From NCBI GenBank assembly GCA_964635905.1, contig CAZWPK010000004.1, forward strand, positions 91,012 to 145,841: a DNA stretch of 54,830 nucleotides, given 5' to 3'. The notes beneath the pieces were generated by a model. It searched no databases, had not been told where the DNA came from, and was given only the letters and a program-made list of their open reading frames with translations. Shown here piece after piece: positions 4,627-54,672 of this stretch; the stretch's first letter is position 1, and each line of letters opens with the position of its first letter. Both the position numbers and the translations under genes were made by a program. This DNA is from an uncultured Pseudomonadales bacterium (GTDB taxonomy: Bacteria; Patescibacteriota; Microgenomatia; UBA1400; UBA12028).

Positions 4627-4814
4627 ACTGGCTCCTTTCTTTAACTAATACAGAAGGGGATTGTTTTTTTTGATGGCAGAAACGAAGAGGATTACTTAAT
4701 AGAACGGTAAGGAAGAAAAGATGCAGGGAAATGTAGTGCCTTTTTATTGAGCAGTTATGCATAGATGCCAGATGAGAGTGGGAAAAAAAGATGATACAAT
4801 TGCATCCTTGCTTC

Positions 4815-4898: not shown

Positions 4899-4904
4899 CA
4901 TGTT

Positions 4905-4981
4905 CGGGGTGTGGCTCAGATGGCTAGAGCGCCTGCTTTGGGAGCAGGAGGTCCCCAGTTCGAGTCTGGGCACCCCGACCA
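4905..4981 (+). tRNA. tRNA-Pro(TGG)
   Basis: Acceptor CGGGGTG/CACCCCG, CCTGC-TTTGGGA-GCAGG, GTTCGAGT, ends ACCA. Confidence 0.97.
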
Positions 4982-6504
4982 TTTAAGACAAGTGGGTCTT
5001 TGAGCAGGGTATCAAAGGGTTCTTTTAGCCTGTACATCTTCACTTTTTCTTCATCAATCCATAAGTTCAAGAAAATAATTCTGACAATTTGGTCTTTGAC
5101 TTCGGGTGTGCCTGCTTTGACAGATAATCCAGCGTTTTTAGACAAGTTCAAGAAGTCTTCCAGCGTTAACACGTCCTGTTCTAGGTCAGGCATGGCTTCC
5201 TTGAGTTTGGTGATTTCTGCCTCCAGTTGGGACTTTTGATTGTCCAGTTCTTTCACTCGTTCCTCACCAATCTTTCTGACTGTCGAGCCTATTTCCTGCT
5301 TGATGACTTGGAGAGCGGTTGTTCGCAACTCATTGTCAGTAGCTTTCAGGTGTCCTTGCTTGGAGTGCAGTTCAACCTCAAGTTTGGCTTTCTGCTTAGT
5401 TAGCACGTCAGTCATTTCTTGCAGGTAAATTTGATAATCTTCCTCAGTGAAGTTGAGTCCATCCTTGAGAAACTCATACAACCAATCAAGCACAACTTTC
5501 ACTCTGACTGATTTCTTAGCTCGTTTGCACCCTGTGGTTTCACACCTGAAGTTAAGATACCGTTTGCCACTCCCACCAGTGGATGGACCAACAGTCATAT
5601 TGCCATCACAAAACGAACATTTTACAAAGGACTTAAAGGGGTAAAAAGTATAGCGGTGAGTGTTAATTGGCATCAGTCGAGTTCTAGTTTGGGTTTGGAT
5701 TTGGTAAAACTCTTCCTCACTGACCGCAGGTACAAAGTCATACTTGGTACGCAAATCAATCTGGTCATCAGCTTGTACCAATACACCAAAGTAAAACGAA
5801 TCTCGGAAGATGATACTCAAGATACGCTTGTCCATGTTCACTTTGCGTCCTGTAGCTTTAATCAAGCGGTGGTAGCCAAGAGAGTTGATTGTTTGGGCAA
5901 TTTTTTCCAGTGACTCACCTTTAAGCTTCATCTGCCATGCTTCCTTGATAAGTTCATGGTTATTACCATCAGGTTGATATCTACCAAACTCATCAATCAC
6001 ATATCCATGTTTAGGAATGTGACTCCTGCCTTCACTAGCTTTTCTGACCATCCCACGAGTCACGTCAGCAGAGAGTTTGTCTGAGTATTGTTTGGAAAGC
6101 ACAAAAGCAAGTCCCAGCATCATCAAACCATTTGCATCTCGAGTGAAGTGGTGAGTAACAAACTTTAAGTCCTTGATGATGTCCTCATCAATCATATCAA
6201 TGACTTCGCCACCTTCTTTCATGTTGCGAGCAAGGCGGTCAGGATTCCAGCACAGAATCCCATCGTATTTACCAACCTGAATATCTTTGAGCATCTGCCG
6301 AAAAACAGGTCTTTTACCAGGTTTCTTAGCGGACTTCTGTTCTGTCAGTGGAGAGCCAACAATGGTCAAATTGAGGCGTTTAGCAAGCTGGAGACACTCG
6401 GCTATTTGGTCAGGAATAGACCGAGCTTGACGCTCTGGGTCATCGGTAGATTTGCGAGCGTAGAGGACATATTTGAGCTTGGTGTGGTCAACTTCATACT
6501 CCAT
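4924..6504 (-). CDS. large serine recombinase 1 (526 aa in integrated state; last codons read antisense through tRNA-Pro)
   Basis: Resolvase catalytic YARKST..RQ..SI..Q, DRLARN, recombinase domain, Zn ribbon CSFC...CETTGC, coiled coil; ATG at 6504 matches paralog start. Confidence 0.95.
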   Translation of the reverse strand: MEYEVDHTKLKYVLYARKSTDDPERQARSIPDQIAECLQLAKRLNLTIVGSPLTEQKSAKKPGKRPVFRQMLKDIQVGKYDGILCWNPDRLARNMKEGGEVIDMIDEDIIKDLKFVTHHFTRDANGLMMLGLAFVLSKQYSDKLSADVTRGMVRKASEGRSHIPKHGYVIDEFGRYQPDGNNHELIKEAWQMKLKGESLEKIAQTINSLGYHRLIKATGRKVNMDKRILSIIFRDSFYFGVLVQADDQIDLRTKYDFVPAVSEEEFYQIQTQTRTRLMPINTHRYTFYPFKSFVKCSFCDGNMTVGPSTGGSGKRYLNFRCETTGCKRAKKSVRVKVVLDWLYEFLKDGLNFTEEDYQIYLQEMTDVLTKQKAKLEVELHSKQGHLKATDNELRTTALQVIKQEIGSTVRKIGEERVKELDNQKSQLEAEITKLKEAMPDLEQDVLTLEDFLNLSKNAGLSVKAGTPEVKDQIVRIIFLNLWIDEEKVKMYRLKEPFDTLLKDPLVLNGRGAQTRTGDLLLPKQAL

Positions 6505-6661
6505 CACACTCGATTATCCCACGAAAAAACAAAAACAGGAGTCCACACCATGCTTTTCCTGTACTCCAACCAGCCCCCCCTTGACCCGTTTCTGCCACAG
6601 CAGGGGTGGCACTACAAACTATCAAAACCTAACATTAACTAATATATAGAAAGAGCCTATA
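6505..6661 (-). promoter_or_regulatory. conserved 157-nt region upstream of LSR1 with two hairpins and a -10-like GATAAT
   Basis: Aligns by eye to 17208-17364; hairpins at 6594-6610 and 6536-6561. Confidence 0.55.
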
Positions 6662-6715
6662 GTATATGACTTTTGTGGTGATGTCACCGTACTCACTGCG
6701 TTATATAATACCTAC

Positions 6716-7162
6716 ATGGGAATCAACGAACGAACAGCCAATATTGACTTCTTGTCTTCTACATTTGATGACATACTCACAATGTATCCTGCTGAGTCAT
6801 TAAAGTTGATGTTCCGTGGTGCTAGAAATGACAACTCGCCTTCTGGTGGAAACTGGTGGTCTGAAGATGCCTATTATGCATTGGGTTGCAGCAGTGATAA
6901 CAGACTTTTTGTAACAGCTGTACCGATAGATTTAATTGCGGAGTTGCAAGAAACTAATCAACTGACTAATGAAAGCGACCACGAAGGAAACAAATGGAAA
7001 TTTAGAAGATTCAATTTACCTCATCGACAGGTTAATGATGCCGAACTGACTGAGTTACTTAGTCAAGCTCGTATAACTAAGCTAGGTGCAACGCGAGCTA
7101 TAAAAACCAGACTTGGAACACAGGCAAGAATTGATTTCTCAAAAAGTGTTATTGTCGGGTAA
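6716..7162 (+). CDS. cargo hypothetical protein, weak ADP-ribosyltransferase-like motifs
   Basis: 148-aa ORF; LMFRG...GNWWSEDAYYA pattern; no counterpart in element 2. Confidence 0.55.
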   Translation: MGINERTANIDFLSSTFDDILTMYPAESLKLMFRGARNDNSPSGGNWWSEDAYYALGCSSDNRLFVTAVPIDLIAELQETNQLTNESDHEGNKWKFRRFNLPHRQVNDAELTELLSQARITKLGATRAIKTRLGTQARIDFSKSVIVG

Positions 7163-7171
7163 ACGGCATGA

Positions 7172-7441
7172 CTACTGTTTTAACAGTTCAAACACCTTCT
7201 TCTTGATATACCTGAAAAAGGCTAAAAGCCGATTCTTCTTGAGTAAGACATACAGAATCTCACGTCCCTGACTGTCCCGCATTGCTATTGCATTTCTGAC
7301 ACCATCCTCACCGAGCTTCTGTTGCTCGTCTATAGCTTTGAGTGCCATCATGATATCAGCACGATTGGCATGAGGTCGTTTGAGCTGTTCTGTCAGTAAT
7401 CGCTTATTCAGTGCTAGGTCTTCTTCAAAGGAAAGTGCCAT
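7172..7441 (-). CDS. conserved small element protein (89 aa), candidate directionality factor/regulator
   Basis: 53 of 89 residues identical by manual alignment to 16424..16711; shared upstream GGTACAAT..CGGTCAAATTATG. Confidence 0.85.
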   Translation of the reverse strand: MALSFEEDLALNKRLLTEQLKRPHANRADIMMALKAIDEQQKLGEDGVRNAIAMRDSQGREILYVLLKKNRLLAFFRYIKKKVFELLKQ

Positions 7442-7479
7442 AATTTGACCGCTATTGTACCTTTTTTACCCGAGAAAGC

Positions 7480-7626
7480 CTAGTACAGGTACACCAACCC
7501 CGCATTGTTTTCACCACGAATGAAGTAGTCATCAGAGATATCCGATTGTGTAACAATTTGAAATGGCTTCCAAAATGCTACAATCGCATTGGCAAGGCGT
7601 TCAAAGTTTGTCGCCTTCACTCGACA
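7480..7626 (-). other. displaced C-terminal coding segment of LSR1 (CRVKATNFERLANAIVAFWK...GENNAGLVYLY*)
   Basis: Ungapped 48-codon match (21/48 identical) to 16239..16385; in frame with LSR1 across the GTCG core. Confidence 0.7.
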
Positions 7627-7660
7627 CATATCGCGTTCTTGAGAGCTTGTAAACAGCTCT
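7609..7660 (+). repeat. junction A: element-1 left arm + CGACAC core + cassette right arm
   Basis: 7609-7626 is the exact reverse complement of 16239-16256 (18 nt); 7622-7660 matches 8179-8217 at 34/39. Confidence 0.85.
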
Positions 7661-7697
7661 TGCTTCTTGTTTTTCTTCCTATAAAATATCCCTAATT

Positions 7698-8117
7698 ATG
7701 TCAAACGTTGAAGCAACTAAATCAAAGTTAGCTGGAAAACATTTCCTGGTGGTGGAAAGTGGCGATGCTGATTGGAAATTTGTATTTGGGAATTACTTTG
7801 ATGTAATGGATGCTACTTTCGACTATGTAGATGAAGAAGATTTTTTAGGATCAGGGATGGATGAGGTTGATACTTATGTAGGAAAATTTGATGGCATCGT
7901 CTTACATTTAGTAGCAGGTGGTTATTTCGATACTTATAAAGAAAAAGCTTTGGAAACAAAACTGAAAGGACTTCCAGTAGTTGTTACAGCATCAGCAACA
8001 TTTACGCCTGACGAAAAAGTAATTGAATTAAACTCACTGGGTATTGGAGTTGTAATAAAAGGCAAAGACTTTAACTTCAACTCAATTTTGGAATTGTTAG
8101 CTGCGCAGATGAGCTAA
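7698..8117 (+). CDS. stand-alone atypical receiver (CheY-like) protein
   Basis: FLVVE (b1), FDGIVLHL (b3, His at the Asp position), PVVVTAS (b4), VVIKGK (b5). Confidence 0.65.
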   Translation: MSNVEATKSKLAGKHFLVVESGDADWKFVFGNYFDVMDATFDYVDEEDFLGSGMDEVDTYVGKFDGIVLHLVAGGYFDTYKEKALETKLKGLPVVVTASATFTPDEKVIELNSLGIGVVIKGKDFNFNSILELLAAQMS

Positions 8118-8133
8118 AAACATAGCAACTTAT

Positions 8134-8217
8134 AGGATCATTGATCTGGAAGTGAGTTATTATTTCATTCCATAGATCCGACACATATTGTGTTTTTGAG
8201 AGTTTGTAAACAGCTTT
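8134..8217 (+). repeat. junction B: hairpin left arm shared with C + CGACAC + right arm shared with A
   Basis: 8134-8184 vs 8692-8742 = 46/51; 8179-8217 vs 7622-7660 = 34/39. Confidence 0.9.
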
Positions 8218-8284
8218 GAATTGCTGGTCGTAAATTCTTCTTCCCGACTTTAGTATACGGTAATATAATTGCTGGAGATGATAT

Positions 8285-8683
8285 ATGTCTGCAGAAAAAC
8301 CTGTTGTAGTACTTGTCGATAACAATAAGACTTATCTCGATACAGTGGCTTTGTTTTTTCAACAAACTGGTATGCATGTGGTTTGTTTTTTATCTGATCT
8401 GGGTAGCAATACAGAAGATTTGGTAGATCGGATACAAAAGAATAGTCCCGACATTGTTGTAACAGGTGTTCGTAATCGAATCGACAGAGATGATGGAGAT
8501 ATGAGTGGGATAGTATTGGCAAATGCTCTAAAATCCAAAGGTATTAAAGTTTTAGTAACATCTTCACCAGAATACCAAGGAATAGCTGAGCAAAATGGTT
8601 TACCTTTTATCGGAAAGCATCTTGGAGCACCTGAGTTTGTCAGTCATATTCAAGCACTTATAGGTCTATCCTTTAAATCATAA
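8285..8683 (+). CDS. stand-alone atypical receiver (CheY-like) protein
   Basis: VVLVDNN (b1), SPDIVVTGV (Gly at the Asp position), MSGIVLANALK, VLVTSS, FIGK. Confidence 0.75.
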   Translation: MSAEKPVVVLVDNNKTYLDTVALFFQQTGMHVVCFLSDLGSNTEDLVDRIQKNSPDIVVTGVRNRIDRDDGDMSGIVLANALKSKGIKVLVTSSPEYQGIAEQNGLPFIGKHLGAPEFVSHIQALIGLSFKS

Positions 8684-8691
8684 AATGCTAA

Positions 8692-8756
8692 AGGACTACT
8701 GATCTGGAAGTGAGTTACTATTTCATTCCATAGTTCCGACACTTTTGATATTCTTG
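8692..8756 (+). repeat. junction C: hairpin left arm + CGACAC + diverged right arm
   Basis: 46/51 to junction B left arm; TTCTTG at the same offset after the core as in junction A. Confidence 0.85.
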
Positions 8757-8903
8757 GAAAATCCTGTTAGATTTGACTACGATTACCATACGCTTATAAT
8801 CAGTGCTGACTCTCCTAACATACTAGAAGTAGTCAAGATGCCATTAATAAAGTGGTGATCAAAATACCAATTGTTCAAATTTTTGTTTAAGGAGATTTCT
8901 CAT

Positions 8904-9341
8904 ATGGGCCCAGTAGAACGTAGAGACGTCACAATTGTAGATACGAACGTTGACCCGAGACTGGCAGAGGTCACTCAGGTAACTATACTAGAACAACTCA
9001 ATGATCGTAAATTTCTTGAAGAACTAATTGCTCAAGGAAGAATTGTCTCTCACGAATTCGGACAGCAGGGGTGGGCAGCCGATATGCGACCTGTGTGCAG
9101 AGTGACGATCTCTCCTATTTCCGAACAACACTATTCTAGAAATGAGGAAGATAATCCTTATGATAGGAGTATCATCTGCGTAATAGTCGATGGAAAAAAA
9201 TATCCTTGCACTACATTCGTTGTCGATGAAGAAATTGGAACCTTTATTAGAGGCATGCTTAGAAGGCGACGTCTTTTGAAGCCTTTCAAAGAGTTTGCTT
9301 CGGGTCTGAAAGATGGACTGCGTTCTGCATTCCGAGGTTAA
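8904..9341 (+). CDS. hypothetical protein
   Basis: ORF 8871..9341; ATG 8904 preceded by AAGGAG. Confidence 0.65.
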   Translation: MGPVERRDVTIVDTNVDPRLAEVTQVTILEQLNDRKFLEELIAQGRIVSHEFGQQGWAADMRPVCRVTISPISEQHYSRNEEDNPYDRSIICVIVDGKKYPCTTFVVDEEIGTFIRGMLRRRRLLKPFKEFASGLKDGLRSAFRG

Positions 9342-9386
9342 CGGAATCATTGCAATTTTTAGGATTTGCAACGCTATACTACGAAA

Positions 9387-10073
9387 ATGGTAACCATTAT
9401 TCATGGTGATGATGAACTCAAAGTCCACCAAAACCTTTCTGCATTATTAAAGACCTACCGTGCGGATAACTTCACAATTGTTCGTTTAGATGCCAAAGGA
9501 CTATCAATCTCCGACTTAGAAACAGCAGTGGGAACTGAGGAGCTTTTTGCCGTAAAAAAAGTTGTCGTGATTGATCGAATTCATGCGCTGCCAAAAAGCA
9601 AGCAGAAAGATCTTCTTTTAAGTTGGCTCTCAGACTTTAAGTCTTCTACTACGGATGTGATTTTAGTCGAACATAAAATTCTTACTCCCACACAATTAAA
9701 AAAATTTCCAAGCGCTGATGTCAGATTATCTAAACTTCCCTCACTACTGTTTTCGTTTTTAGAGACGATTGGAACACAGCCAGCATACAAAAGTGTAACG
9801 CTGTTTCATCAGGTGCTAGAAAATCAGGAGCCAGAGCAAGTCTTTGTGATGATTATTCGTCAGTTTCGCTTGTTACTGCAATACAGTAGTGATGGAGTGT
9901 ATAACGGACCTCCATTTGGTCGATCAAAAATTCAAAAACAGTCGGATCGGATACCAAGAGAAAAACTTTTGCTGCTTTACAACCGACTACTACAAATCGA
10001 TTTGGGACAAAAAACCTCGACATCCGTCTTATCACTAACCCAAGAAATTGACCTTTTCCTGCTAGAGATCTAG
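9387..10073 (+). CDS. holA: DNA polymerase III delta subunit (short form)
   Basis: MVTIIHGDDE, EELFAVKKVVVID, IIRQFRLL, LLQIDLGQKTS; TATACT 6 nt before ATG. Confidence 0.8.
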   Translation: MVTIIHGDDELKVHQNLSALLKTYRADNFTIVRLDAKGLSISDLETAVGTEELFAVKKVVVIDRIHALPKSKQKDLLLSWLSDFKSSTTDVILVEHKILTPTQLKKFPSADVRLSKLPSLLFSFLETIGTQPAYKSVTLFHQVLENQEPEQVFVMIIRQFRLLLQYSSDGVYNGPPFGRSKIQKQSDRIPREKLLLLYNRLLQIDLGQKTSTSVLSLTQEIDLFLLEI

Positions 10074-16204: not shown

Positions 16205-16271
16205 GAGAGGATGTTTATGCCCTCGAAAGCGTGCTCTATGTCGAGTGAAGGCGACAGACCTTGAACGCCTT
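16205..16271 (-). repeat. junction D: element-2 left arm + CGAC core + diverged cassette-type right arm
   Basis: Minus strand AAGGCG-N12-CGCCTT-CACT-CGACA followed by GAGGGCATAAACATCCTC, similar to GAGAGCTTGTAAACAGCTC of junction A. Confidence 0.75.
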
Positions 16272-16385
16272 ACAGAAGTGATTTTAGCACGCTGGCAGAG
16301 AGTCGAGTTCACTATTCCCGAATTGATGAATACTGATAACTTCACTCATGGTGAAAATAAGATAGGGCTATCGTATGTGTACTAG
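16239..16385 (+). other. displaced C-terminal coding segment of LSR2 (CRVKATDLERLTEVILARW...GENKIGLSYVY*)
   Basis: Ungapped homolog of 7480..7626; the Met of copy 1 is CTA here; in frame with LSR2 across GTCG. Confidence 0.7.
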
Positions 16386-16423
16386 GATTACTCGACGGAA
16401 ACGGGTACAATGACGGTCAAATT

Positions 16424-16711
16424 ATGCCATCCACACCAGAGGAGAGACTAGCTGAAAACAAGCGATTATTACAGGAGATGCTCAAGAATCCTAAGTATCA
16501 GCGGGCGGAACTTGTCGAAGCACTCAAAGCCGTAAACGAGGAACAAGCTCTCGGTGTCGATGCTGTCCGTAACGCGATAGCCATGCGTAATGCGAAAGGA
16601 CAAGAGATTTTGTATATGCTCCTCAAGAAAAACCGAGTCCTCACCCTTTTCCATAAGATAAAGAAGTGGGTCTTTGAACTAGTGTATAATATGCCTATTA
16701 AATCAAAATAA
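16424..16711 (+). CDS. conserved small element protein (95 aa), candidate directionality factor/regulator
   Basis: Paralog of 7172..7441 (NKRLL, ALKA, VRNAIAMR, EILY.LLKKNR). Confidence 0.85.
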   Translation: MPSTPEERLAENKRLLQEMLKNPKYQRAELVEALKAVNEEQALGVDAVRNAIAMRNAKGQEILYMLLKKNRVLTLFHKIKKWVFELVYNMPIKSK

Positions 16712-16720
16712 GGAGCCAAT

Positions 16721-17173
16721 ATGTCAGAAATCCTTTCAGATTTTGGTAAAGAAGCAAATGAGACACCCAAAGTGACAGCAGATGCTCAACCGCAACCAGC
16801 TACAATTTCTCCAAATAGATTGCAGAGCATTGCAGACTTGATGGCTCAACCTGCTGAATCTACGGATACTCCTGTTGCGAAGACTGAGACACCGAAAGCA
16901 GAAATCTCTGAAGTTTTAGTTCTCAAGCAAGGTTTGAATGCTGTCATAATGCCTGAACTTAGAGACGTATTTAAAGACGAGAGATTTGGTGACTCATTTG
17001 GTGACGTGAGTGCAGAGGTTGCAAGAGATAGGCTCCAAAAGTTTCTTGATGAAATCCAAAAACAAGGTGGTAAAGTCCTTTCTACTGTTAGCCAAATGAC
17101 CAATGAAAATCCTAGTGAAATGAATGGTGATGACCCAAAGCTGACTACGTTCTTTATAGTAGAAAAATCGTAA
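16721..17173 (+). CDS. cargo hypothetical protein
   Basis: 150-aa ORF with AGGAG ribosome-binding site; Pro/Ala/Thr-rich N-terminus. Confidence 0.7.
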   Translation: MSEILSDFGKEANETPKVTADAQPQPATISPNRLQSIADLMAQPAESTDTPVAKTETPKAEISEVLVLKQGLNAVIMPELRDVFKDERFGDSFGDVSAEVARDRLQKFLDEIQKQGGKVLSTVSQMTNENPSEMNGDDPKLTTFFIVEKS

Positions 17174-17207
17174 AGACTTACGCTAAAGTAGGTAGCATCT
17201 TTTATGT

Positions 17208-17364
17208 TATAGGGCTACATTCTCCTGTTAGGTATTGTTAGATGTTTGAAGTCTCTAGCCCTACCCCTCTTGTGGCTAAAACACCCTAAACCAGTGGCTT
17301 TTGCTATAGGAAGAGCGTGGTGTGCATACCTGATTTTGTTTTTCCTAGTAGTACAATCAGCGGT
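17208..17364 (+). promoter_or_regulatory. conserved 157-nt region upstream of LSR2 with hairpins and -10 TACAAT
   Basis: Aligns to 6505-6661; TACAAT 17352-17357, 7 nt before ATG. Confidence 0.55.
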
Positions 17365-18945
17365 ATGGATTACGAAGTGGATACCTCCAAACTCAAATAC
17401 GTCATGTATGTCCGTAAGAGTACCGATGACCCAGAGCGCCAAGCTCGCTCCATCCCCGACCAGATTGCGGAGTGCCAGGAGCTCGCTAAACGCCTCAATC
17501 TTACTATCGTTGGGAGGCCTATTGAGGAGACCAAATCAGCCAAGAAACCTGGGAAGCGTCCATTGTTTCGGCAGATGCTTAGAGACCTGACGGCTGGTAA
17601 ATATGACGGTATCCTTTGTTGGAATCCTGACCGCCTGGCCCGAAATATGCGTGAGGGTGGTGAAGTCATCGACATGATTGATGAAGACATCATCAAGGAC
17701 TTAAAGTTTGTAACACACCACTTCACCAAGGATGCAAACGGCTTGATGCTTCTGGGACTTGCCTTTGTCCTCTCCAAGCAATACAGCGACAAATTATCAC
17801 AAGACGTGACTCGTGGGATGGTCCGTAAAGCCAGTGAAGGTCGAAGCCATATACCCAAGCATGGATATGTCATTGATGACAACGGGAGATATCAGCCAGA
17901 TGGACCGAACTTTGACCTCATCAGACAGGCCTGGCAGATGAAATTACACGGTGAGCCACTCGAAAAGATTTCCAATACTATCAATGGTCTTGGGTATCAT
18001 CGCCTCATCAAGTCCACAGGTCGTAAGGTCAATATGGACAAGAGAATCTTGAGTGAATTATTCCATGACTCCTTCTACTTTGGGATGTTGGAGCAAGCGA
18101 GTGAGACGGTTGACCTGCGCACCAAATATGACTTTGTTCCTGCTGTGACCGAGCAAGAGTATGCTCAAGTCCAAGCTCTGACCAGAAGCCGTATCATCCC
18201 ACTCGTCTCACATCGCTTTACCTTCTACCCATTCAAGACGTTTGTTCGCTGTGCATTCTGTGACAACAATATGACTGTTGGTCCTTCGACTGGGAGTACA
18301 GGCAAACGGTACTTAAACTTTCGCTGTGAGACTCCAGAGTGCAAACGTATCAAGAAATCTGTACGGGTAAAAGTAGTCCTCGATTGGTTGTATGCGTTTC
18401 TCGCTGGTGGACTCAACTTCACCGAGGCAGATTACAAACAATATCTAGAGGAGATGACAGATGTCATTACCAAGCAACGAGCGACGCTTGAAGGTGAACT
18501 GCACGCCAAACAAGGATTACTCAAGACGACTGATGCCGAACTCAGGACCACTGCCCTCCAAGTCATCAAACAAGAAGAAGATTCAACTGTCAGACGTATC
18601 GGTGAGGAGCACGTCAAGGAACTGGAGCAACAGAAAGCGCAGCTAGAGACAGAGATTGCCTCTATCAAACAGACCATGCCTGATGTTGCACAGGATGCAC
18701 TTACCTTAGAAGATTTCTTGAACTTGTCAAAGAATGCGGCAGAATCAGTCAAAGCAGGCACTCCAGAAGTCAAAGACCAAATTGTCAGAATTATCTTCTT
18801 GAACTTATGGATTGATGAAGAAAAAGTAACGAAATATCAGGCTAAAGAGCCGTTTCATTCCCTGCTTGCTAACAGGCAACTACCTACTAGTCGGGGTGAC
18901 TGGACTCGAACCAGCGACCTCTTGCACCCCATGCAAGCGCGCTAG
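17365..18945 (+). CDS. large serine recombinase 2 (526 aa in integrated state; tail read antisense through tRNA-Pro(GGG))
   Basis: YVRKST catalytic motif, CAFC...CETPEC Zn ribbon; roughly 75-80% identical to LSR1 by eye, same length. Confidence 0.95.
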   Translation: MDYEVDTSKLKYVMYVRKSTDDPERQARSIPDQIAECQELAKRLNLTIVGRPIEETKSAKKPGKRPLFRQMLRDLTAGKYDGILCWNPDRLARNMREGGEVIDMIDEDIIKDLKFVTHHFTKDANGLMLLGLAFVLSKQYSDKLSQDVTRGMVRKASEGRSHIPKHGYVIDDNGRYQPDGPNFDLIRQAWQMKLHGEPLEKISNTINGLGYHRLIKSTGRKVNMDKRILSELFHDSFYFGMLEQASETVDLRTKYDFVPAVTEQEYAQVQALTRSRIIPLVSHRFTFYPFKTFVRCAFCDNNMTVGPSTGSTGKRYLNFRCETPECKRIKKSVRVKVVLDWLYAFLAGGLNFTEADYKQYLEEMTDVITKQRATLEGELHAKQGLLKTTDAELRTTALQVIKQEEDSTVRRIGEEHVKELEQQKAQLETEIASIKQTMPDVAQDALTLEDFLNLSKNAAESVKAGTPEVKDQIVRIIFLNLWIDEEKVTKYQAKEPFHSLLANRQLPTSRGDWTRTSDLLHPMQAR

Positions 18946-18964
18946 CCAACTGCGCTACACCCCG
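18891..18964 (-). tRNA. tRNA-Pro(GGG)
   Basis: Minus strand CGGGGTG/CACCCCG, CTTGC-ATGGGGT-GCAAG, GTTCGAGT; CCA not encoded. Confidence 0.96.
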
Positions 18965-54598: not shown

Positions 54599-54672
54599 TG
54601 CCGGATCTGCTAATGGTAGGCAGCTTGACTCTGAATCAAGTAATCTAGGTTCGAATCCTAGTCCGGCAGCCA
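54599..54672 (+). tRNA. tRNA-Gln(CTG)
   Basis: TGCCGGA/TCCGGCA, CTTGA-CTCTGAA-TCAAG, GTTCGAAT, ends GCCA. Confidence 0.95.

Follow-up and report, generated by a model that had tools for sequence, protein, structure and literature searches.

A 54,830-nucleotide stretch of contig CAZWPK010000004.1, from an uncultured bacterium of the Patescibacteriota, was analyzed at its full length (the window). It carries a tRNA-Pro(tgg) gene followed at its 3' end by an element (el1) that encodes a large serine recombinase (LSR) and then by two smaller units, cassettes 1 and 2, without a recombinase gene; a second LSR element (el2) lies farther along the window in the opposite orientation (Table 1). The units meet at the tetranucleotide CGAC, and the sequence on either side of this core is referred to as an arm: P' and P at the two ends of el1, R and L at the two ends of each cassette, and Y beyond the last cassette. 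A serine recombinase probably collects genes at this locus, which would make it a small-scale form of known tandem island arrays.

Table 1. Positions of the features of the tRNA-Pro array and of the second LSR element in the window
Feature	Position	Strand	Remarks
tRNA-Pro(tgg), target	4905..4981	+	ARAGORN, Rfam; 3' end ...CCCCGAC provides left (B-type) arm and core
LSR1 in integrated state, 527 amino acids	4924..6507	-	Last 18 codons are tRNA-Pro antisense
CGAC core, tRNA/P' junction (attL of el1)	4976..4979	+	tRNA ends and element starts directly after CGAC in el1, el2, L009, L010, and L012
el1, 2.64-kb LSR element (P' arm, LSR1, cargo open reading frame, orf89, P arm)	4980..7621		End conservation and whole-length match to L009
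orf148, variable cargo slot of el1	6716..7162	+	No Pfam or PHROG match
orf89, small conserved element protein	7172..7441	-	61% identical to orf95 of el2
Detached LSR gene 3' end, 47 codons plus stop	7480..7623	-	LSR frame kept across core
P arm, element-side left arm of junction A	7596..7621	+	
CGAC core of junction A (P/R), attR of el1	7622..7625	+	
R arm of cassette 1	7626..7662	+	Terminator-like hairpin at 7640-7662
Gene 1, 139 amino acids	7698..8117	+	Receiver/flavodoxin-like fold (model)
L arm of cassette 1	8131..8178	+	
CGAC core of junction B (L/R)	8179..8182	+	
R arm of cassette 2	8183..8219	+	30/36 identical in register to cassette 1 R arm
Gene 2, 132 amino acids	8285..8683	+	Receiver-domain fold (model)
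L arm of cassette 2	8689..8736	+	
CGAC core of junction C (L/Y)	8737..8740	+	
Y arm, distal flank	8741..8800	+	TTCTTG in register with R
el2, second LSR element, inverted	16244..18889	-	Between GTCG at 16240-16243 and tRNA-Pro(ggg) at 18890-18964

The hexamer CGACAC marks three junctions, A, B, and C, at positions 7622, 8179, and 8737, with the spacing of 557 and 558 bp that the initial annotation of the window had reported. By itself, the hexamer was unremarkable (26 copies in the window versus 18.6 expected). In ungapped comparisons, the left arms of B and C matched at 42 of 51 positions (best stretch, 41/43), so that these junctions do share a left arm as annotated, at a count lower than the 46/51 originally given; the right arms of A and B matched at 34 of 39 positions, in exact agreement with the earlier count. 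The left arms of A and B were unrelated (21/51), and the right arms of B and C matched at 19 of 39 positions. A 35-nt L-arm pattern matched the window twice (8141 and 8699; 0 expected from 100 shuffles), as did a 20-nt R-arm pattern (7639 and 8196; 0.02 expected from shuffles), and no further copy of either arm was found anywhere else in the window. The left arm of A had been assigned to the end of the LSR element, an assignment borne out by its conservation in nine other elements. Several samples gave independent Logan assemblies in which the junction region was 100% identical. In one sample, contigs ended at 8147 and 8174; these ends were considered as possible variation and rejected, since other samples read through them with no alternative sequence. 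The G+C content of the cassette region was 0.36 to 0.39, versus 0.43 to 0.47 in its surroundings.

The LSR1 protein of el1 matched the Pfam families Resolvase (3.8e-23), Recombinase (5.9e-08), and Zn_ribbon_recom (6.4e-04), and its nearest relative of solved structure (PDB) was the SPbeta LSR; no relatives of LSR1 were found in viral contigs. A scan of GTDB genomes yielded four relatives of el1 (L009 to L012), all in Patescibacteria-type metagenome-assembled genomes and all adjoining tRNA-Pro (tgg, ggg, cgg, and ggg, respectively), and a metagenome scan with the P-arm pattern yielded four further element ends (L018 to L021). L009 matched el1 over its whole length at 85% nucleotide identity, with homology stopping at window positions 4903 and 7628, and the ends of el1 were conserved in L010 to L012 and L018 to L021. 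Together with el1 and el2, these make 10 ends of LSR1-family elements, two of which (L020 and L021) represent the same end with the same flank. The P arm was conserved up to CGAC in all 10, with the flank diverging from the next base, and all six elements with a recovered tRNA-proximal end (el1, el2, and L009 to L012) abutted tRNA-Pro (tgg, ggg, or cgg). The attL and attR sites of el1, el2, L009, L010, and L012 had only CGAC in common, with no long direct repeats. Because the P arm is conserved to CGAC and the tRNA ends at ...CCCCGAC in the relatives, el1 and el2 are, by sequence comparison, 2.6-kb LSR elements with the 3' end of tRNA-Pro as their target and a predicted crossover within CGAC. 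The four base pairs would correspond to the last acceptor-stem base of the tRNA, the discriminator A, and the first C.

The second element repeats this arrangement in reverse. An inverted copy of the left arm of junction A lies at 16239 to 16289, and LSR2 (17365 to 18945), which is 74.5% identical to LSR1 at the nucleotide level, adjoins tRNA-Pro(ggg). The slot held by orf148 in el1 contained another, unrelated ORF (orf150) in el2 and different DNA in L010; PHROGs and Pfam gave no match for orf150 or for orf145, an open reading frame (ORF) beyond the cassettes. The cargo ORF thus differs between the two elements, and orf95 is conserved. The orf89 protein likewise had no family match in Pfam or PHROGs; it is a candidate directionality factor or regulator. 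The two elements flank 8.6 kb of chromosome with holA and sugar-nucleotide genes, a segment that could invert. Two candidate observations on el1 were rejected: contig L025 (2,641 nt, near element length), considered as a circular form of el1, was simply window positions 5044 to 7684, and contig breaks at window position 5044, considered as an att boundary, were explained by the LSR1/LSR2 repeat.

The LSR gene itself is divided by integration. In el1, a 47-codon tail of the gene lies detached at the far end of the element, and its counterpart in el2 is found at 16242 to 16385 (plus strand). This tail was in the same frame, with a conserved peptide (RVKAT...GENxxGLxYxY-stop), in all nine elements compared (el1, el2, L009 to L012, and L018 to L020). 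Integrated LSR1 instead ends in about 18 codons of tRNA-Pro antisense (4924 to 4979, minus strand). As read from these sequences, integration would swap the last 47 LSR codons for tRNA antisense, and the tail would be rejoined only in the circular form. Because the LSR gene spans attP, full-length LSR would be made only from the circle, and the split gene could act as a switch between integration and excision.

Next to el1, each interval between junctions held one ORF (gene 1 and gene 2), as originally annotated. The earlier statement that the arms are far more conserved than the proteins also held: the gene 1 and gene 2 proteins had no BLASTP similarity, and their DNA was no more alike than shuffled controls (244 matches versus a shuffled mean of 250). 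On sequence reading, neither protein had an obvious phospho-acceptor Asp. Gene 2 was an orphan among 5.8 billion proteins; gene 1 had homologues at 98% on the Logan contigs L014 and L015 and at 55% on L016 and L017. No strong sigma-70-like promoter was found upstream of either gene in a scan whose model does not cover patescibacterial promoters. The Y arm beyond cassette 2 is probably the native B' arm. Look-ups of orf145, orf89, and a 179-amino-acid neighbor returned the same strain only, and no empty tRNA/Y site was found. Within the Y flank, a near-consensus promoter-like site (TTGACT-16-TATAAT, 8773 to 8800) lies upstream of orf145 (8904 to 9341), which had no family match and is located inside the low-G+C stretch with the cassettes; orf145 may be an older acquisition with decayed arms.

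Cassette 1 was also found in another organism. Window positions 7622 to 8166 corresponded to L014 positions 2015 to 2559 at 98% nucleotide identity, in a block that begins at CGAC and stops 2 to 3 nt past the next CGACAC, with no identity beyond. L014 and L015 are independent assemblies in agreement on the array, and their organism differs from that of the window (tRNA-Pro about 85% identical, a different tRNA-Leu/Pro spacer, and unrelated neighbor genes). The order in L014 is tRNA-Pro (...CCCCGAC), R arm, gene 1, L arm, and CCGACAC, followed by a second unit of Z arm, two GNAT genes, L arm, and CCGAC, and at the distal end by a P' arm with 183 C-terminal amino acids left of an LSR1-family protein (40% identical to LSR1 residues 334 to 511; E = 7e-39). 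The unit 3' of cassette 1 therefore differs, being the gene 2 cassette in the window and the two-GNAT cassette in L014. Because the 98% identity begins at the core, ends just past the next core, and has nothing beyond, cassette 1 is, on this comparison, a discrete block bounded by the LSR core and recently shared between species. L014 and L015, in which tRNA-Pro adjoins R and gene 1 with nothing between, also represent the unoccupied target of el1, and the R arm acted as the B' arm for integration of el1 in the window lineage. Elsewhere in L014, a 1.9-kb segment (8117 to 9993) missing from the otherwise identical L015 contains an LSR1-type element with an internal deletion and a fragment of the 3' part of tRNA-Pro; the fragment has lost CGAC, and there is no tRNA gene at that site.

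The L arm was traced to a second LSR family. Contig L007 equals window positions 7791 to 8741 and then, right after CGACA, switches to new sequence with a minus-strand ORF that reads toward the core. The closest protein (P0004, on L026) matches the C-terminal ~100 residues of many proteins of 520 to 596 amino acids with Resolvase, Recombinase, and Zn-ribbon domains, referred to as LSR-X. From the tRNA side, L026 contains the end of an unrelated gene, an L arm, CGAC, a P'x arm, an LSR-X remnant, orf116, and orf320, and continues with a second L arm, CGAC, an R-like flank (20/36 in register with R), and a convergent Mur-ligase gene. L029 has tRNA-Pro(ggg) joined at CGAC to a remnant of LSR-X. 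The L arm is thus, judged from these arrangements, the distal element-side (P-type) arm of LSR-X elements. It also closes four LSR-less units with unrelated gene sets; all four have the same layout, from CGAC and a flank-type arm on the left to an L arm and CGAC on the right. The cassette right arms R and Z resemble native flanks that lie 3' of tRNA-Pro in related genomes, namely at the end of the L026 array and, for Z, in the L012 flank. This likeness and the hairpin in R fit an origin as host flank carried off with an element, an origin that has been suggested for tycheposon islands (bioRxiv 10.1101/2020.12.28.424599).

Several other observations were made on the arms and their flanks and on LSR-X relatives. 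L arms occur in short and long forms, the long form having an 18- to 21-nt GC-rich hairpin inserted at the same position (L014 2560 to 2580, 21 nt, in the L arm of cassette 1; L026 6457 to 6474 and about 4659 to 4677), with the loop in opposite orientations between copies (cgcc-ttt-ggcg versus ccgcc-aaa-ggcgg). A "TYGAR" motif at B-type versus P-type spacing, spotted by eye, was dropped because it was present in only about half of the flanks. In L028 (1277 to 3072), a 586-amino-acid LSR related to the LSR-X C terminus abuts tRNA-Ser(gct), with its ORF running into tRNA antisense, which suggests a wider clade of LSRs targeting tRNA 3' ends.

When the junctions were tabulated across these loci, CGAC was common to 21 of 21. 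The left arms were tRNA-Pro, P, or L, and the right arms were P', P'x, or flank-like sequences. The tRNA-Pro left arm was found with P', P'x, and R; the P arm with nine distinct flanks, R among them; and the L arm with R, Z, Y, R-like, P', and P'x. To judge from the sequences, these arm combinations are the pattern that would be expected from repeated insertion of circular units at one site.

An alternative is that the array arose by ordinary tandem duplication of a receiver-like gene, with the arms being a terminator and a 5' region kept by selection or gene conversion. The receiver-like folds and similar lengths of the two proteins, the terminator-like hairpin in R, and the 55% homologue of gene 1 in L016, which has weakly R-like and L-like flanks, are consistent with this. 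Yet the L arm, which has no conserved RNA structure, is also found behind the GNAT gene pair, behind an LSR-X element, and, in L026, behind an unrelated gene; a different species has cassette 1 at 98% identity with its edges at cores; and the gene bodies of the two cassettes are no closer than shuffled DNA. Tandem duplication with conserved regulatory arms is thus largely refuted by the cross-genome data, and we consider it very improbable. L016 comes from a relative with 78 to 81% nucleotide identity over 9 kb, and its synteny with the window breaks off precisely where tRNA-Gln(ctg) (window positions 54599 to 54672) has its 3' end. The homologue of gene 1 (L016 9863 to 10420), without CGAC at its flanks, lies there, and this may be another tRNA-seeded variable site.

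We consider it likely that site-specific recombination by LSRs, acting at the 3' end of tRNA-Pro, has built an accretion array at this locus, with cis-mobilizable mini-cassettes. The array in the window would comprise one autonomous unit (el1, which encodes the LSR) and two LSR-less mini-cassettes, each built of a right arm, one gene, and an L arm of ~50 nt. Because the right arms R and Z are homologous to ordinary flanks 3' of tRNA-Pro, a cassette landing beside the tRNA would rebuild a usable target (tRNA/R), into which el1 would then have integrated. LSRs from neighboring elements would cut at any two cores, so that a single unit or a run of adjacent units could be moved as a circle and reinserted at the tRNA-proximal junction, and older units, including trapped and decaying LSR genes, would be shifted distally. 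CGAC unit boundaries, transfer of a cassette between genomes, variable array content, linkage to tRNA-Pro and LSR genes, and use of the R arm as B' are read from the sequences compared; LSR as the acting enzyme, circular intermediates, and proximal insertion are what the accretion model would presume.

The prediction in the initial annotation of discrete cassettes (right arm, gene, left arm) is upheld by their boundaries, which lie at the same 4-bp core where LSR elements join tRNA-Pro. It had further proposed that the arms, if sought in other genomes, might flank varied genes near tRNA-Pro and LSR loci; varied genes were flanked, and a tRNA-Pro/LSR link was present in every array found. Array content also varied, with gene 2 (window) or the two GNAT genes (L014) after gene 1 and a third gene before the L arm in L026. 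Three lines of evidence, each of them weak, agree with the proposal that the newest unit is the one beside the tRNA. LSR genes abutting tRNA-Pro were intact or full-length in six of seven cases (el1, el2, and L009 to L012), the seventh (L029) being a remnant; the LSRs behind L arms were remnants (183 amino acids in L014 and 134 in L026); and the recently shared cassette 1 was the tRNA-proximal cassette in both arrays (window and L014). The order itself we infer.

A cassette might reach a new site by either of two routes. In one, free L/R circles would be captured at the tRNA-proximal junction, which requires tolerance of non-canonical site pairs; the nine distinct B' flanks suggest that the right half of the target matters little. 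That a cassette travels alone in this way is possible without being probable. In the other, an LSR element would exit with its adjacent cassettes by using the downstream L/flank junction as an alternative attR, the composite would integrate elsewhere through L/P', and the element would later excise alone, leaving the cassette behind. This route needs only the canonical attP x attB and attL x attR pairings, and transport in such a composite is quite possible, if still short of probable.

Several points weigh against accretion by LSRs. No read of a circle junction or of an empty site was seen, in searches confined to assembled sequences. Nine of the 10 LSR1-type element ends have no adjacent cassette. 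The window has no LSR-X, the family with the L arm at the end of its elements, so that the cassettes there may be immobile fossils. Entry of an L/R circle into a tRNA/flank site is not a canonical attP x attB pairing. L arms were found in only three or four genomes, with 0 matches in JGI metagenomes (pattern ATTTCATTCCATAGNTCCGAC) or viral contigs (longer pattern TATTTCATTCCATAGNTCCGAC); 17-mers of the L and P arms gave chance matches only in viral contigs (L013, L030, and L031). The L arm had no significant similarity to the P arm or to the tRNA-Pro arm, in a test of low power (P versus P' is also without dyad symmetry). Homologous recombination between tRNA-Pro and L-arm anchors could have been what spread cassette 1.

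This last point can be extended to a replacement island, in which the arms are relics of old LSR events and the cassettes now spread by homologous recombination of DNA acquired from relatives, with exchange of everything from tRNA-Pro to the L arm. The 98% block shared with L014 is flanked by such conserved anchors, no circular intermediates were seen, and the cognate LSR-X is missing from the window. The anchors are nevertheless very short (about 75 and 50 nt) and 85 to 90% identical, and the right edge of the 98% block lies 2 to 3 nt past the core, not within the L arm. Moreover, P' and P'x abut L exactly at CGAC in three loci, and homologous recombination cannot make such junctions. We consider a replacement island improbable.

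The initial annotation had ascribed an integron logic to the array. In outline, the likeness is there: small, mostly single-gene cassettes lie head to tail at one fixed site, with content differing between genomes. However, the recombinase is a serine and not a tyrosine recombinase and belongs to the mobile units itself, insertion is at the end of a tRNA, no fixed platform of integrase and Pc promoter is apparent, and there is no folded site of the attC type. The description was therefore overstated, given the absence of attC-like junction structure, the resemblance of the right arms to ordinary flanks, and the nine cassette-free element ends. A stronger version would make the array a serine-recombinase counterpart of the integron, with the L arm and CGAC as a universal attC-like site for at least two LSR families, ~0.56-kb minicircles captured serially at tRNA-Pro, the R arm of each cassette keeping the site open, and the split LSR regulating itself (full-length from the circle, truncated when integrated); we consider this doubtful.

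Could the array instead be a classical integron or another tyrosine-recombinase cassette system, with attC sites as its junctions and LSR elements that landed there by chance? Single-gene cassettes of ~0.56 kb, arranged head to tail with variable content, would fit. No tyrosine recombinase was found in or beside the arrays examined, however, where LSRs were the only recombinases; the boundaries lie at CGAC (the LSR crossover) and not at G/TT of the attC R' box; neither covariation nor a conserved imperfect palindrome was seen at the junctions; and two LSR families abut L at the core. The alignment of L-arm junctions had 0 compensatory pairs and a consensus fold of -4.2 kcal/mol, and the region had no Rfam match apart from the two tRNAs. 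On these grounds (no Rfam match and no covariation), we rejected the possibility that the L arm is an RNA element or a piece of a tRNA; since there were no compensatory pairs and no Rfam match, it suits a putative protein-binding DNA site better. With neither a tyrosine recombinase nor attC features in the arrays examined, a classical integron is refuted and, as an explanation of the array, hardly credible.

By analogy, the array appears to resemble composites of the staphylococcal cassette chromosome mec (SCCmec), Dehalococcoides ssrA islands, and tycheposon islands more than it does integrons. SCCmec and recombinase-less SCC-like composites lie at the 3' end of rlmH/orfX and are moved by the large serine recombinases CcrAB and CcrC. 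Shared with these are LSR insertion at the 3' end of a conserved gene and tandem units separated by a short repeated core (see also PMC3146451), as well as recombinase-less units mobilized in trans, with any two cores usable in principle. The target there is a protein gene and here a tRNA, a CcrA/B pair contrasts with one LSR, and the units are 20 to 60 kb there versus 0.56 to 2.6 kb here; the conserved ~50-nt arm on cassettes and the LSR gene spanning attP are further differences of the present system.

The ssrA-specific islands of Dehalococcoides carry a CcrB-like serine recombinase next to attL (McMurdie et al. 2011, PMC3146451), and some are without an integration module and were proposed to be cis-mobilizable (PMC3146451). 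They likewise occupy the 3' end of a small RNA gene as multiple tandem repeat-bounded islands, with a conserved motif just upstream of each repeat (PMC3146451). In contrast to their 20-bp direct repeat, six-gene integration module, and many-kb islands (PMC3146451), the present array has a 4-bp core, a three-gene element, and one-gene cassettes. Tycheposons account for the growth of Prochlorococcus islands seeded at tRNAs (Hackl et al., bioRxiv 10.1101/2020.12.28.424599), in which incoming elements push older ones distally, earlier-host flanks and degenerate elements accumulate, and tRNA-Pro(tgg) is among the targets (10.1101/2020.12.28.424599). They use mostly tyrosine recombinases and leave partial-tRNA repeats (10.1101/2020.12.28.424599), whereas the array here has LSRs, a 4-bp core, no tRNA fragment repeat, and sharply delimited mini-cassettes.

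We found no description of this system in the papers searched. Its new features are the small scale (units of 0.56 kb with one gene each and an autonomous element of 2.6 kb), tRNA-Pro as the target together with a core of 4 bp, the ~50-nt arm common to cassettes and LSR-X elements, and the phylum. Patescibacteria (the Candidate Phyla Radiation) have very small genomes. To our knowledge, few routes of gene gain have been described for them. Here, variable arrays at tRNA-Pro appear to be assembled from a family of 2.6-kb LSR elements and from still smaller cassettes with one gene and no LSR, at least one of which has passed between species, and the split LSR gene offers a testable switch between integration and excision. 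If the cassettes are LSR substrates, no smaller unit of LSR-driven gene traffic would be known, and the array would be a natural case of repeated insertion at a self-renewing landing site; the LSRs, which are compact and combine a defined 4-bp core with a universal tRNA target, would be of interest for genome engineering.

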